DNA of 57,649 nt, counting the filler, from Squatina squatina (taxonomy: Eukaryota): the NCBI GenBank assembly GCA_031763465.1. It is 3 parts of 3 records of this genome, joined end to end, with 100 filler letters (N's around TTAATTAATTAA, not from the genome) between each part and the next. Parts side by side here need not be neighbours in the genome. Positions count along the whole stretch, not along the records: positions 1 to 20,402 come from JARFOE010000019.1; 2 more parts are not named here. One strand, 5' to 3'. Positions 6,959 to 40,002 of the stretch are shown piece after piece. Position 1 is the stretch's first letter. Each line of letters opens with the position of its first letter. A model generated the notes under the pieces. The model saw only the letters and a list, made by a program, of their open reading frames with translations, did no database searches and was not told where the DNA came from. Made by a program: the position numbers and the translations under genes.

Positions 6959-8476
6959 TNNNNNNNNNNNNNNNNNNNNNNNNNNNNNNNNNNNNNNNNN
7001 NNNNNNNNNNNNNNNNNNNNNNNNNNNNNNNNNNNNNNNNNNNNNNNNNNNNNNNNNNNAGTTTACTAAATATTTGCAGGAGAATCAGGTTTTAATTTGA
7101 ATTGCGGGGTATTTTTTGTTAGGATTGGGTTTTAGTGTAATTGTTAATTGTTGAATGTTTAACCAAAATATGAATATTTGCAGGCGACTCCTCTCTCTCC
7201 CATTGCGCATGACAATGATTAACAGAGCTGCATGACTGTAGAATATGCGAGCAGTTTGTAAATCACAGGATGAGGTGCACAGGCTGCAGCGAAACATAGA
7301 AAATGCTGCAGGAAAGAAGGTGGCTTCGTCTCAAGCCCCGGTCATGTGTTGCAGAAGTAGCTGCAGTGTATCAAATCATCTTGCCTGGAAGAGTGTAACA
7401 GTGCAATCCTTTATATTCGCTTCGCACTCCGTGTTCAGTGTATTTTTAGCCCAGTTGCCCAGTCAGGAAAAAAAAATGGGGCCAGCTCCTATTGAAATGG
7501 ACTGGCTTTTGATCCTTCATAATTTGCTCAGTGCGCCTGCGGGAGGATGTGCCTGAACACAGGCCCTGCACAGTGAACACAAAGGCACATCAATTTAAGT
7601 ATCTCGCAGCAGCTAATTCATGATGCCCTCAAAGCAACTTTCACAGCCAGGAAAGTGCAATTGTATTTTCCAGCTCATTTAGCAGGGCTGCAACAAAGCA
7701 AACCGCTCCCCCCCCCCAAAAAAAAATCTCAGCTGAAACAGACTCTCGCAGAATTAAATAAACGGAGTGGAGATCTCGGATGTCTTCTCCTCTCACGGAA
7801 ATCTGGCTGCTACTGAACCATGTATATTCCTCAAATCCCACTTCTTTTGAGGGCTGAGCGGCTCATTGTCAAAAGAAAATTTAATGCTTGTTTATTCAGG
7901 ATCCTTTTAACATTCCTCCCACTTATTGTTCCCGCGGATGGGAAGAATTCTAAACTGTAATCTGGGCACAATTGGGCCCACTTATTTGTTCTGACCTTTC
8001 TCTCTGCTAATCAAAGTCAACCCGTAATCACATAAACATCTGTCACAGTGGTAAAGGAAAAAGGGTTTTATGACCCTTTTTTGAGACTCCTACAGTGTAA
8101 TTATAACATTAAATGGTAGGAATAACTCTGTTGAAGGCTTTTATTTAAACAGAGGTCATAAAGCTACTGTGAAATGGCTACCATCGACAAGAGCAACCGA
8201 ACTGGATTACAATGTGCTGCACGAAAGCTAGAGATACAACAAAACTCTTGTTGAAATTGAGCTGAGGTTAGTTTCGCACTGTCAGTTGCTAGTTTACATT
8301 AATACAACACCAGTCAATCGAGGAAAAAAAGGATTTTTCTCGATAAAACAAACCTCGACACACTGGCATTGCTTCANNNNNNNNNNNNNNNNNNNNNNNN
8401 NNNNNNNNNNNNNNNNNNNNNNNNNNNNNNNNNNNNNNNNNNNNNNNNNNNNNNNNNNNNNNNNNNNNNNNNNNNN

Positions 8477-8969
8477 TTTCATTGTTGGAGCACCTTGTAA
8501 CGCTGCTTCTGTTGGATCTTCAACAGAATCCGGTAAGTCAAGCGCCGCCAGCCACAAGAGGTCAAATGTCTCCCCCAGGGGTCCAAGAAGCCCCAAGAAG
8601 AAGCGCTCACGAGCGGCGTTCTCGCATGCCCAGGTGCTGGAGCTGGAGCGGCGGTTCGACGGCCAGAGGTATCTGTCGGCCACGGAGAGGGCCAACCTGG
8701 CCGGGGCCCTGAAGCTCACCGAGACCCAGGTCAAGATCTGGTTTCAGAACCGAAGGGCGAAGGCAAAAAGACTGCAGGAAGCCGAATTGGAGAAACTCAA
8801 ACTGGCCGCCAAACCCTTGCTTCCCTCCTTCGGGTTGCCGTTTCCCATCGGCTCCCACCTCACCTCCCCATCTTTATATGGACCGTCCAACGCCTTCCAG
8901 CGCCCTGGTCTGCCCGTCCCTGGACTTTTCACAACTCCAGTCACATATGGAATGTATTATTTATCGTAA
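8477..8969 (+). CDS. NK-class homeobox exon, chimeric: NKX3-type homeodomain N-terminal arm and helices 1-2, MSX-type end of helix 3 and C-terminal tail; 5' end lost in a gap
   Basis: Open frame with homeodomain at 8598-8777. [46 protein letters not shown] matches NKX3-2/NKX3-3. [24 protein letters not shown]...YGMYYLS* matches MSX. Stop TAA at 8967-8969. Confidence 0.85.
8715..8969 (+). CDS. MSX3: MSX3-type C-terminal coding region (exon 2, 3' part)
   Basis: [14 protein letters not shown] and terminal YGMYYLS resemble Msx3 rather than MSX1/2 (KLKMAAKPML...MYHL). It lies upstream of TUBGCP2 on the same strand, as I recall for mouse Msx3. Confidence 0.75.
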
Positions 8970-9500
8970 ATTGTAACTGTTCCCCTGCCTTGAGAGAGAC
9001 ACAATCCTCCCCTCCCCCCATCCCCTTTTTCCCTCCCCCTTCCCCCTTTATTTCTCTCCCTCTGATATTGAAGTCAGCTAGCCAAATACTACAGCACCGT
9101 GTTCTGGCTACGAACTTGCTTTTTAAAAATTCAGATAGCCCTGTAGTGGTCGGCGCTAGCCGGCTTAACCCTCGCAAATATTTGTCCAAGTTATTCCATC
9201 AAAACTGGGTCAACTGCTGAGGTTATTTGTTATCCTATTCAGTTGTTGTTTCTCGGTATTATTAGACCCACAAGTGCAATTCAAGTTCATCAAAAAAAAT
9301 ACAGAATAATTTATATAGAAAGATAATTATTCTAAATCTGTGCCGTTCAACTTGATTTTTCTTTTTTTTAAAAAAAACTTTCTAAATTCAACAGCAAAAA
9401 NNNNNNNNNNNNNNNNNNNNNNNNNNNNNNNNNNNNNNNNNNNNNNNNNNNNNNNNNNNNNNNNNNNNNNNNNNNNNNNNNNNNNNNNNNNNNNNNNNNN

Positions 9501-9605: not shown

Positions 9606-10564
9606 TTTCACTTAACAAAGGTCCTGTTATCTAGCAAATGGGGAAAAAACCACACCAAGTGTCAGTCTCTCACCTTTTTTTGTATGTCTACCAAAGGTGA
9701 TTCTTATCACCACCCTAACTAGGAGCTTGTTTTGTATTATTAGTTAGCATTCAATGAATTCACCACTATACACATATATGTGTTCTTGGGTCTGTATGGA
9801 GTTCAGACAGCTCGGTTCTCTAAATCATACATAAACACACATAGATTCAACAGACCAGTGAACAGCTCAAGAATTTTAGAGTTTCAGAGTCACTTGCCAT
9901 GTTCTGTTTTGCAGCCAGAATCTGGAAAAGTGAGTCGTGCCATTCCAGGATGTGAATATCTAGCAGATGACTGGACGGGAAAGAGCGCTTGCAGGAGGAG
10001 CAGACGTTGCGGTGGTATGTGTTATAATGATGTTCGTAGTTTTCTAGGGTATCGAACAGTTGACTGCAACCTGCTATATGACAACAGAATTCAGAAACCC
10101 TAGATTAAAAACAAATGATATACACAAGTTAGCACTTTAGGGGGAAAAAAAAAGAGGGGAAATTCAAATAGCTTTGATTCAATATAGTTAGAAAAGGGGC
10201 ATCCTTAAAAGCAAACATCTTTTCTTACTTGGGTCTTTCCACTTCTCCCACACTTGTTATGGCATTTCGCAGGTATAAATGTCTATGGATATCACCATCC
10301 TAAAACAAAATAAAAATAGTGAAACTAATTTCCGTAAACCATTAGCTTGCTAATTGCAGATTATTATAGTTACAAGTTAATCAATTACTTACAAACTTTT
10401 ATCCTTCATTGGTAAAAGCTTCTTGTGGTGGAGGCCGAGCAACAGTATATCTTACTGGCTAAATNNNNNNNNNNNNNNNNNNNNNNNNNNNNNNNNNNNN
10501 NNNNNNNNNNNNNNNNNNNNNNNNNNNNNNNNNNNNNNNNNNNNNNNNNNNNNNNNNNNNNNNN

Positions 10565-10880
10565 CAGTAATAGGCATTCCACTTGACCTACCACATGACA
10601 GGAAGAATGAGCAGTACAGAACAGGACAAGCTGTTGGAAGAGGGAGAAGGAGCAGGAAGGGAAGAAGGGCTCTCAGCAGGAGGCCATATCCACCCAGGGC
10701 GTTCAGGGAGCAATTCTCCTACCTGAACTTCAATGACGAACAATGTTTCAGACGTCTTTGCTTCACTAAGGAGATCGTCACTGAAATCTGCCAACTGCTG
10801 TTGCCACAACTTCACCCTCAGAGCAGGGTAAGAACTGCATTGCCAGTGGCTGTGAAGGTGACCATGGCTCTGAACTTTTC
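10565..10880 (+). pseudogene. Harbinger/PIF (HARBI1-like) transposase N-terminal fragment
   Basis: RRPYPPRAFREQFSYLNFNDEQCFRRLCFTKEIVTEICQLL.PQL...RTALPVAVKVTMALNF matches the HARBI1-type N-terminus (FRF/RLRF motif through 'KVT.ALNF'). Similarity stops before the DDE core. Confidence 0.8.
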
Positions 10881-10996
10881 TGTGTGCACCTCATGTCAAC
10901 TCTGCCATGTACCTGAACTGAAAAGGATTCCATTCCCCCAACACAGAGCTGGTGTGTGACCATAGGTAGCACATCATGCAGGTCAATGCCCGGTTG

Positions 10997-11335
10997 CTAG
11001 ATGAGTGATGGGGGTGTGGTGAATTGAGCAGTAGCTGAGGCTAGTGGTGCAGTTGGTGGGATATGGCATTTGAAGATGCCTTCACTGACCTTGACCACTC
11101 GTGTGAGGTTATTAAACTTCTTGCGGCACTGCATCCAGGTCCTTGGGGCTAAACTCATGGCATTGACCTCCGTGGCAACTGTTCCTACTGCCTTCTCATC
11201 ATGTGTTTGGGTGGCCTCCTCGCGCCCCACCCCCGGAGGAATCTGGACAGCTCTCCTCCTTTCCACCTGGTCTGCCAAGACCTCTAGTACAGCGTCTGAA
11301 AACCTGGGTGCCCGTTCTCTCCCATAGACAGCCAT
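10997..11335 (-). pseudogene. Harbinger Myb/SANT-like (trihelix) DNA-binding protein, first exon, degenerate
   Basis: RERAPRFSDAVLEVLAD.VERRR ... VATEVNAMSLAPRTWMQCRKKFNNL is a Myb_DNA-bind_5/MSANTD-type motif. Convergent with the transposase fragment. Confidence 0.8.
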
Positions 11336-11918
11336 TCTTCACTCTTTCCCAGGTCAGATTCAGTTGCAGAATGACTCCCAGCATCAGCTTCGGCCACAAT
11401 GCACCTCCTCTTTAAGAGGTGCAGGCTAACTTTAAGTTGTGCAAGTTACTAACAATTTTAGGCCCCCTGCTGATGCATGCAGTCAGTGAACATCGTGGTT
11501 AGCACTGGCTGCATGCAGAAATCATTATAATGAGCAGGCAGCGCAAAGGTAACATACTGCCTGCATTATACTGAACAGGCGCCAGCTAACCCTCCATGCA
11601 GTAATTATGTCCTAATGATGAATCCTTCAATTTGGATGTTATCATACATCAGTTGTGGATGAATTTACACAAGGACTGGAGGACTCATTCCACGATCAGA
11701 TACTCCACAGGAGTAGCAGTTTTGGCAGGCACTGCAGGTCAGGGAAATAATAGGTCCACGATTCTCTGAGCTGTGCTCCTGTGAGCAGTACTTGTTGCTG
11801 GAGCATCTGAAAGCAGAATCCACTCTTATCCCTCCACAGTGATATAAAATGCTCAGAATTCTTTACTGGGAAATTGATATCACTACCAGTTATAGTAATT
11901 GGTGGCTTAATAAAAAGG

Positions 11919-14599: not shown

Positions 14600-14776
14600 T
14601 AATATTTACATGGCTTCTTTCTGCACCAGAAATGTTTGACATTTTAGTGGATGTTCCAGACCGTCATGCCCTCCAGACTGACTTAAGGGACTGTGATGTG
14701 CTAGACCGTGGTGGAAATAAGTGTGTGTGAATATTTGTTTTGAGCTTTAATAATTCTGCTTTGTGCGTCTGCTCAG

Positions 14777-14976
14777 GTTCATTGAAGACAAGTCCTCCTT
14801 TGAGCACGGTCAGGTAAACCATGCTTTGGCTGCAGCAATGCGGACACTCGTGAAGGAGTACATGATCCTCGTGACGCAACTGGAACACTTACAGCGACAA
14901 GGGCTGCTCTCATTACAAAAACTTTGGTTTTATGTTCAACCAACCATTCGAACAATGGAGATTTTGGCTTCAATAG
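14777..14976 (+). CDS. TUBGCP2: Gamma-tubulin complex component 2, internal exon
   Basis: ctcag|G TTC ATT...ATA G|gtat; encodes (R)FIEDKSSFEHGQVNHALAAAMRTLVKEYMILVTQLEHLQRQGLLSLQKLWFYVQPTIRTMEILASI. Confidence 0.95.
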
Positions 14977-15401
14977 GTATTGCTTTGTGTTGAACCTGTC
15001 TGTATTTTTTAAATAGCTGGCTTAATTGTAATCTCCATGTAAAGATAAAGTTCAAAAAATCTTGAAAAAAAATAAGGATAAAGTTCACCCATGCAGATTG
15101 GCCTGTTTTGGGGGGCGAAATCACTGTCAAAGCAGCAACAATAAATAGAATATTACTCATACACACTAAAATATTTATAATTGGAAGGAATCTTTGAGTA
15201 ATGTTTACTGTGAACAAGCCTCGGTTGAAGCATGGAAACTTTTAATTGCTGATCACTACAATATACATCGTCAACAAGATTTTTATTTTCCGGCAACAAA
15301 CAACTGCAATAAGTAATTTTTGCAAAAGAAATGATAGCCAAACAAATATAATTAGTAACTGATTCAACAGGACATTATTCCTCTTCTGTGTTTTGTATCA
15401 G

Positions 15402-15591
15402 CTACTTCTGTGGAGAAAGGAGAATGCATGGGAGGATCAACGCTAAGTGTGCTCCACGATCGGACTTTCAACTACACAGGCGACAGTCAGGCACAAGAGC
15501 TGTGTCTCTACCTGACGAAAGCAGCAAGTGTTCCTTACTTTGAAATTTTAGAGAAGTGGATCTACAGGGGAATCATACAAGATCCTTACAG
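15402..15591 (+). CDS. TUBGCP2: TUBGCP2 internal exon
   Basis: atcag|CT ACT...TAC AG|gtat; (A)TSVEKGECMGGSTLSVLHDRTFNYTGDSQAQELCLYLTKAASVPYFEILEKWIYRGIIQDPY; phase compatible with neighbours. Confidence 0.95.
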
Positions 15592-16062
15592 GTATAAGGT
15601 TACCCACTGGAAAAAGCATCACTCCCTGTCTGGTTATTTTAACATAGTATTTAATCTGTTGAGTACTGAGGCTCTCGCGCTTCTTCCCTATCCTTCCCCA
15701 CTGGCACCATTCTCCTCCCCATGGCCCCCTCCTGGGCTCTGCAGTTCATGGAGTCATTCTTTCCCAACTTCGTCACTCCTGCCGGATGTTGTTACTCCAG
15801 GAGATTAAATGTTGCTGCATGGTGTGACCTGGAATTCTGCATCTTATGAACTGGAAGTGTTGAGCTTAACTGTTTTGCAGAGGTAACAGGTTTGTATATT
15901 GCAAGTGATCTCAATCATTAGTGGGGCAGATAATGCTGTGTAAAGGAAAATGTATCCATCTGCTTTGCTTGGAATATTTTAATTACTTTGACATAGCATT
16001 TTACATCATAAGATTAACACGGTAATTTTATTGAAAAATTGAACTATCTTTGTGTTCTACAG

Positions 16063-16208
16063 TGAGTTCATGGTGGAGGAACATGAACTTCAAAAGGAGA
16101 AAATTCAGGAGGATTACAATGACAAGTACTGGGATCAGAGGTACACTATCATCCAGCACAGAATCCCTTCGTTTCTGCAGAAGTTGGCTGATAAGATACT
16201 TAGTACAG
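16063..16208 (+). CDS. TUBGCP2: TUBGCP2 internal exon
   Basis: tacag|T GAG...ACA G|gtaa; (S)EFMVEEHELQKEKIQEDYNDKYWDQRYTIIQHRIPSFLQKLADKILST. Confidence 0.95.
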
Positions 16209-17066
16209 GTAATACAATATTTTGTGGACTTTTTCCATTATCTATTTGTCCCTTCATATCATGTGGCCACCCTATAATCTGTTTAAATTGCAATTAAATA
16301 GATGTCTTTCTCTAATGTTGAAGTGAATTGATTTGTTTTTATTAAAATATTAAATTAAACCAGCTTCCTTGGTATCTCTATTGAGGAATGCCACTGTACT
16401 GTACACTATAGCTACACCCATTCAACTGTCATCAGCTAAGTTTGCCTCCACATTCAGGCTCTGAGTACCCATTATGTGCAACCACAATACTTTACACAGC
16501 CTACATGGATGAGTTCTGTTGAGAGAAAATTTTATGAAAGGAATGAGAAACAGTAAATGCACAGTGTTAATAGGGAACTGAAAATTCCAAGTTTCTGTAT
16601 AAAGATCTTGTTGCAGAGAAATATTTTCCTGGGTGGGGTTTGCACAACATAAGTTTAGTATTACTCTTCATTACTGCTTTTGTCCATAATTCTTAGCAGG
16701 AAAAAACCAGCATGACGACCAGGAAGACTAAATTGTTGCCTGTTTTGACTGTAGCGACTGAGAAAATGAACCTTTTTGAAAAAGAAACCTTAAGAACAGA
16801 CTTTATCCTTGGGCTCAGTTCTACTTAATAAACTTCAAATAAACAAACAAGGAAGATTGCTTTATGTCCTTGTGTTGCAGAAAGTTGATAGAATCTCCAA
16901 GGAAATGGAATTTTAGAATGTCCTTCTCTGATGTAAATACAAGCTCTTTATGAATTTCTACTATAGTTAGGGAAAAAATCCCTTCCTTCCCTTGCCCAAA
17001 CAAGATCTACTGATGTAACCTGCATTGTTTATAGCTCCTTTTAATAATTCAACACATATAAATAAC

Positions 17067-39569: not shown

Positions 39570-39955
39570 ATGTCCTTGGAGCTCTGTGGTTTGTTGGAAC
39601 TCTTCGGGCCTCCAGATCTCCTTGTGGCACTGGACAGTAAGGTTTCAATAGCTGAAACCAAATCATTGTTACATCCTTTCAGCACCAGCTCCAACACAGA
39701 CTGTTTGTGGTTCGGAAATACCCTGGCTAGAACCTCTATGGGAGGCCTTTTGGATTGCCCTGCAGGAGCCACGTCCTTCAGCACATCTTCGGACTTAAAG
39801 AGCTTCTTGATGTCGTTGAAATTATATCTGGTGGCACCTTTAATCTGTTCCTTGTTTTCCTTCTTCCGCTCTTTGTCATTGCTTGGTTCCGGGAGGGGCG
39901 ATAGTGCATCGCTATTTTGGGTATCTATGGATGAAACGGGCTCTTCCACGTCACT
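39570..39955 (-). CDS. DMRT-family protein exon with DMA domain (DMRT3/DMRTA-like, divergent); DM-domain exon not present
   Basis: [41 protein letters not shown] matches the DMA domain (cf. DMRT3 [39 protein letters not shown]). The frame is open into the 240-N gap. The 5' boundary is uncertain. Confidence 0.85.
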
Positions 39956-39983
39956 TTGCAGGCGGAGACCAGTCTGTGCCCAT

Positions 39984-40002
39984 CTCTCTCTCTCTCTCTC
40001 TC
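39984..40002 (+). repeat. (CT)n microsatellite in the PRDM13 5' region
   Basis: TCTCTCTCTCTCTCTCTC seen directly. Confidence 0.8.

Follow-up and report, generated by a model that had tools for sequence, protein, structure and literature searches.

An in-frame NKX3-1/MSX3 homeobox in the Squatina squatina assembly, probably a misjoin within a helix-3 block common to both genes

In the stretch of Squatina squatina DNA analyzed here (57,649 nucleotides, filler included; hereafter, the window), a single open frame encodes a homeodomain that begins as an NKX3-type and ends as an MSX-type protein, which raises the question of whether the animal carries a real hybrid gene or whether the frame is an artefact. 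The frame is contained in one gap-free piece of 924 bp (8477-9400), which is bounded by 100-N scaffold gaps on the left (8377-8476) and on the right (9401-9500), and a DNA search of the assembly returned one exact place for it (G000 C19:1508793-1509716) among seven matches. The initial annotation had described a gap-free open frame, and this description holds except for its first position: the frame runs on the plus strand from the N gap to a TAA codon at 8967-8969, that is, from 8478 (instead of 8477) to 8969, and contains no N. Its homeodomain (HD) occupies positions 8598-8777 (Pfam PF00046, E 6e-22).

Sequence comparisons give good support to the view that the 5′ part of the frame is genomic NKX3-1 with the end of its intron, rather than NKX3-2 or NKX3-3. 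For instance, residues 17-79 of the frame produced 168 matches, with Nkx-3.1/koza proteins of cartilaginous fishes on top (up to 86%). HD residues 1-39 (8598-8714) had been annotated as NKX3-type and are indeed so, as they agree at 33-37 of 39 positions with eight NKX3-1 proteins of cartilaginous fishes, at 33-34 with four NKX3-3 proteins of bony fishes, at 31 with NKX3-2 of the same genome and at 15 with MSX proteins. Additionally, residues 101-200 of the NKX3-1 protein P0121 match 8478-8771 at 82% in a tblastn search, reaching back through the intron-end sequence, and, in the tree of the 5′ half, the NK3 fork stays open (88/77) while the five nearest rows are NKX3-1. NKX3-3, which was initially named as the donor, was consequently dropped in favor of NKX3-1 on the basis of the protein matches, the match of the intron end and the pre-homeodomain residues to P0121, and the nearest tree rows.

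Two further NK3 homeobox pieces occur separately in the assembly; one is NKX3-2-like (L009), and the other (L038, G000 C144114:457-549) is probably NKX3-3 and reaches the end of its contig after HD31. According to PMC12019251, nkx3.1, nkx3.2 and nkx3.3 each have a vertebrate locus of their own next to NK4 genes. Three of the proteins retrieved (P0127, P0131 and P0241) have NK4-type and NK3-type homeodomains in tandem and are likely models in which two adjacent genes were fused.

The intron end of NKX3-1 would occupy 8477-8526 of the plus strand and finish with an acceptor AG at 8525-8526, in phase 1, which fits a donor candidate in NKX3-1 exon 1; the boundary at 8526/8527 was inferred by comparing P0126 with the contig that bears that exon (L045). 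The 5′ part of exon 2 would then extend from 8527 to 8714 (plus strand). Exon 1 itself is found alone on an unplaced contig of 1079 bp (C554893), so that this eh1-bearing exon is unlinked to exon 2, and it is absent from the window and from C19:1450000-1530000. The piece thus has in common with NKX3-1 of cartilaginous fishes (P0121, P0122 and P0123) the intron end, the acceptor, the 24 residues that precede the homeodomain, and HD1-53. By contrast with those genes, it lacks the whole C-terminus of NKX3-1, its exon 1 sits apart on an unplaced contig, it has Thr at HD29, where 18 of 18 NKX3-1 proteins of cartilaginous fishes have Pro, and, in the place of the Tyr54 expected of NK3, it has Ala54 (GCG, 8757-8759). 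Tyr54 is named as a feature of NKL proteins in a passage of PMC8615965.

From 8757 onward, the sequence, judged by its matches, is MSX3 and is sited at the MSX3 locus. Frame residues 94-163 (HD54 to the end) gave 717 matches, with MSH-C/MSX3 proteins of sharks and chimaeras first (93-97%). Residues 54-73, for which an MSX-type sequence had already been noted, agree at 19-20 of 20 positions with MSX3 (20 of 20 in five proteins from shark, chimaera, coelacanth and caecilian) and at 3-7 of 20 with NKX3, and the tree of the 3′ half places the window inside the MSX3 clade, apart from MSX1 and MSX2 of its own genome (99/98). The 3′ coding part of MSX3 exon 2, from Ala54 to the stop (8757-8969, plus strand), is 97% like MSH-C of Heterodontus. 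It is presumably followed by the 3′ UTR up to the end of the piece (8970-9400, plus strand), since a contig of a relative (X8 record 10) matches 8773-8987 and spans the MSX3 stop; the remainder would be UTR by extension. HD40-60 and the entire C-terminus are common to the piece and MSX3 (MSH-C) of cartilaginous fishes (P0001 and P0003), at 97% over 70 residues. By contrast, the N-terminal arm and helices 1-2 are not of MSX type (only 15 of 39 positions in HD1-39), and the searches of the assembly yielded neither exon 1 of MSX3 nor the 5′ portion of its exon 2.

The surroundings of the piece also correspond to MSX3. Exons of PAOX and ECHS1 lie upstream on C19, and exons of TUBGCP2 (gamma-tubulin complex component 2; 14754-16294, plus strand) lie downstream. 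There is, in addition, a ZNF511-like C2H2 zinc-finger exon on the minus strand (9850-10104), with weak zf-C2H2 and DUF7565 matches under the curated cut-offs, which we take to be ZNF511, and we assume that these four genes are the usual neighbors of MSX3. Section 16 of PMC2655272 places Msx3 in a 10q26-equivalent paralogon with Calcyon and Adam8. The neighbors of the piece would likewise be those of the 10q26-type MSX3 region, a position that rests on neighboring genes and on scaffolding instead of contiguous sequence. As 100-N gaps flank the piece on both sides and scaffolding placed it, its location is not independent proof of a real insertion.

Two other features of the window may be mentioned here. 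At 10567-11338, a fragment similar to Myb/SANT (PF13873), likely a remnant of what is presumably a Harbinger-type transposon, lies opposite another open frame, and, in the second stretch of the window, an exon on the minus strand (39572-40000) carries a DMRTA motif (Pfam PF03474).

The two halves meet in a block of 42 nt (8715-8756, plus strand; HD40-53, helix 3) whose 14 residues are the same in both families, as the initial annotation stated and as the comparison of the halves confirms at the protein level; hence, the junction falls in a stretch common to both parents. In a 645-nt contig from another organism (X14 record 1), the match covers 8718-8837 with four differences and the sequence upstream of it is a normal MSX helix 2, which indicates that the letters of the block are MSX3-like from 8718 and that MSX3 is intact in that relative. 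Differences between the parent families suggest upper limits for the shared block of 42 nt in the window and of 21 nt in a second hybrid of the assembly (L119, see below), both of which fit a word size near 21. A fall in third-position GC had also been put forward as a mark of the junction. The fall itself stands, as G or C closes 35 of 39 codons in HD1-39, 12 of the 14 block codons and 41 of the 70 codons that follow, but the intact MSX1 of the same assembly falls likewise (32 of 39, then 31 of 74); consequently, this shift was dropped as evidence for the junction.

The same block proved to be a point of switching elsewhere in the assembly. A family search scored 150 of 216 candidate homeobox loci and gave 124 matches, part of which were fetched. 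Helix 3 was present in 60 pieces, of which 40 passed a filter that called for HD5-39 and at least seven residues after HD53 (including L094, which is interrupted by an intron), and these were screened by comparing the nearest neighbor of the 5′ half with that of the 3′ half and scoring their discordance. Five of the 40 pieces switch family within this helix-3 block: the window, a TLX/HMX, an NKX1/NKX2, a Hox13/Hox4 and a Hox11/Hox9-type hybrid. The top discordance scores belonged to L119, L030, the window, L023 and L021, four of which are true switches; L030 was rejected as a false positive of the screen, its partner (L102) being without its 5′ part.

In L119 (G000 C100:9203594-9203870), the 5′ half is of Hox13 type (PDB Hox-A13 and Hox-B13), while the 3′ half is Antp-like and 93% like the Hox4-type piece L103; a Hox13 exon 1 lies just upstream, across a 10-N gap. 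This piece is likely a misjoin of the same kind. In L023 (G000 C189:5852915 onward), a TLX-type 5′ half precedes a 3′ half that is 93% like the HMX-type piece L012, at 13 kb from an intact HMX gene; the protein atlas gave no name to this 3′ half, so its HMX2 label is presumed from its likeness to L012. The third hybrid, L021 (G000 C115:12276086-12276250), has a 5′ half that is 91% like the NKX1-type piece L019 and an NK2-type 3′ half with His52 and Tyr54, which we take to be of NKX2-1/2-4 type; it lies 10 kb from a gene that is presumably NKX2-2-like. The last one (L114, identical to L075; G000 C192:12304412-12304585) was missed by the discordance score. Its 5′ half is 97% like the Hox11-type piece L115 and is followed by MKMK, a motif that mostly follows Hox9-type 5′ ends, whereas all 40 Hox11-type segments among 147 newly retrieved proteins have MKEKK; a Hox9 piece at C192:12279097 ends at a gap before helix 3. 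HMX2, NKX1, NKX2-4, HoxD13, HoxD4 and HoxA11 are the names that we presume for the parts of these hybrids.

Five real exchanges in one animal, each of them replacing half of a conserved developmental gene, would be implausible. Other homeobox loci of the assembly were also noticed. For instance, L157 (G000 C100:9192581-9192920), whose homeobox is split by an intron in helix 3 and is open in both parts, lies between an EVX-type exon and the Hox13 gene and is presumably HoxD14. Three HMX-type homeoboxes (L022, L013 and L014, at G000 C1:7417865, 7434020 and 7436327) occur within 19 kb; the first of them (L022) has diverged further, and a 10-N gap interrupts its helix 2.

The state of the assembly makes switches of this kind understandable. 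Among 54 helix-3 segments of the genome, 19 of 1431 pairs have exact, in-register runs of 21-30 nt over Trp48, and such runs between paralogues would be expected to tangle a small-k graph at helix 3. The assembly consists of 1,152,659 contigs, gap-free pieces in the window have a median length of about 1.3 kb and around 40% of the fetched regions is N. Furthermore, near-invariant residues are changed in five of 47 helix-3 segments (L024, L033, L035, L097 and L118), several of them close to the ends of their pieces; two further rows were set aside from this count as natural LIM-class variants. These single-residue changes are likely base errors rather than signs of divergent genes and, with the Thr29 of the window, they suggest that coverage is thin. 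According to PMC3663818, chimeras are common in de novo short-read assembly of transcriptomes. The hybrid resembles chimeras of paralogues from short-read de Bruijn assembly in that the switch is in register, falls in the most conserved shared stretch and recurs across a gene family within one assembly; it differs in that the assembly is genomic, the reciprocal product is missing rather than present and the joining step is inferred.

Separate trees of the two halves, a search for the reciprocal product and for the intact parents, and a check of relatives had all been proposed with the initial annotation. The trees set the 3′ half in the MSX3 clade and the 5′ half nearest to NKX3-1, as given above. 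Whole proteins, their unshared parts and sequence patterns were used as queries against the genome, about 40% of whose fetched regions is N, and neither the 3′ end of NKX3-1, nor the MSX3 sequence upstream of the block (exon 1 and the beginning of exon 2), nor a reciprocal product or an intact donor was found with them. A degenerate, exact helix-3 pattern hit 13 places, none of which is an orphan half of NKX3-1 or MSX3. An intact donor would be expected after gene conversion, and a reciprocal product after a clean two-way misjoin, and neither was met; given the proportion of N, the absent halves weigh little on their own.

Relatives carry normal NKX3-1 and MSX3. The motif WFxNRR is present in 297 of 314 fetched proteins, in which an NKX3-type 5′ half is always followed by YK (99 of 99) and an MSX-type one by AK (190 of 190), so that none of the 297, many from sharks and rays, is a hybrid. 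A search with HD1-85 of the hybrid returned 3645 proteins, and the best 120 of them (lengths 89-286) consisted of ordinary MSX3 and of records with homeodomains in tandem, with no likeness greater than 78%. Among 14 sequencing runs, none contained more than 0.08 of the words of the query and no RNA data set was on record as containing it; eight of the 14 were compared with the window, all from organisms other than the source. Of these, X14 and X8 yielded MSX3 pieces and X2 gave only partial homeobox matches less than 90% alike; X1, X9 and X11 matched only in the helix-3 blocks of other homeobox genes and a C-rich stretch, and X6 and X7 gave no match. The switch thus recurs at other loci of this assembly (five of 40 pieces) and is absent from the 297 proteins fetched from other species.

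We consider it almost certain that the NKX3-1/MSX3 frame is an artefact of some kind, and we assign a probability of roughly 0.93 to a computational misjoin between the 5′ part of NKX3-1 exon 2 and the 3′ part of MSX3 exon 2, both of which most likely belong to ordinary, unlinked genes in the animal. The initial annotation leaned slightly towards a path switch by the assembler, and that lean is strengthened by the recurrence at other loci, the lack of an intact donor and of a reciprocal product, and the normal genes of relatives. With thin short-read data, the paralogues would have an identical word of at least some 21 nt in common within the block (the assembly contains the block of neither parent in its own context); the assembler would enter from NKX3-1 and leave through MSX3 at this word, and the two remaining branches would be lost, either trimmed as dead ends or discarded because their contigs were too short. 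Scaffolding may then have set the hybrid at the MSX3 locus through its 3′ part, the longer of the two.

The same sequence pattern would be expected if the switch had occurred at the bench, by PCR template switching between the paralogues at the shared block, and the resulting molecule had been copied by the assembler at very low depth, such as the five near-invariant changes in 47 segments and the Thr29 of the window suggest. Nevertheless, five of 40 pieces is a high rate for such a route, and the exact shared runs already give the assembler its opportunity, so we regard a library chimera as very unlikely. In whole-genome libraries, PCR template-switch molecules are rare against true templates. 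The other alternative, the real recombination or conversion considered initially, would have moved the intron end and exon-2 sequence of NKX3-1 into MSX3 in the germ line. Its product would combine an NKX3-type arm and helices 1-2 with Ala54 and a C-terminus of MSX type, and its first exon would come, by splicing, from either MSX3 or NKX3-1. In fact, the join is seamless, gap-free and in frame, the acceptor and stop are intact, and the phase of the NKX3-1 acceptor apparently equals that of the MSX1 intron; as a consequence, a real hybrid could in principle be spliced. The absence of an intact MSX3 or NKX3-1 in our searches and the position among PAOX, ECHS1 and TUBGCP2 would also suit a real fusion, but that position comes from scaffolding across 100-N gaps on both sides, and conversion should have left an intact donor, whereas none was found and the piece has one exact place. 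Additionally, four unrelated chimeras have the same junction block, the MSX3 of a relative is normal across it and no such protein exists among the 297 fetched. A small literature search for natural homeobox chimeras formed by gene conversion met only a preprint on fungal mating types, which does not imply their absence from print. An event in the germ line seems to us even a little less probable than one in the library, and the assembly misjoin is clearly preferred.

It is highly improbable, then, that ectopic recombination within helix 3 has given a shark lineage a real in-frame NKX3-1/MSX3 hybrid in the place of MSX3. NK2 and NK3 proteins prefer AAGTG-type sites and MSX proteins TAAT. If the gene were real, an NK3-type N-terminal arm joined to the MSX-type, Ala54-bearing end of the recognition helix would be predicted to bind DNA as a natural swap of specificity between unlinked NK-class genes, and it would be a rare instance in which DNA-recognition residues are exchanged between unlinked developmental regulators. 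As biology, the frame is most likely unimportant, its halves being ordinary NKX3-1 and MSX3. Its value is rather one of caution, as about one in eight of the full homeobox pieces screened (five of 40) combines two families in a clean open frame. Odd homeodomains and in-frame fusions of paralogues in this genome need the support of reads before they are believed, and the same holds where MSX3, NKX3-1, HMX2 or Hox genes seem to be lost.
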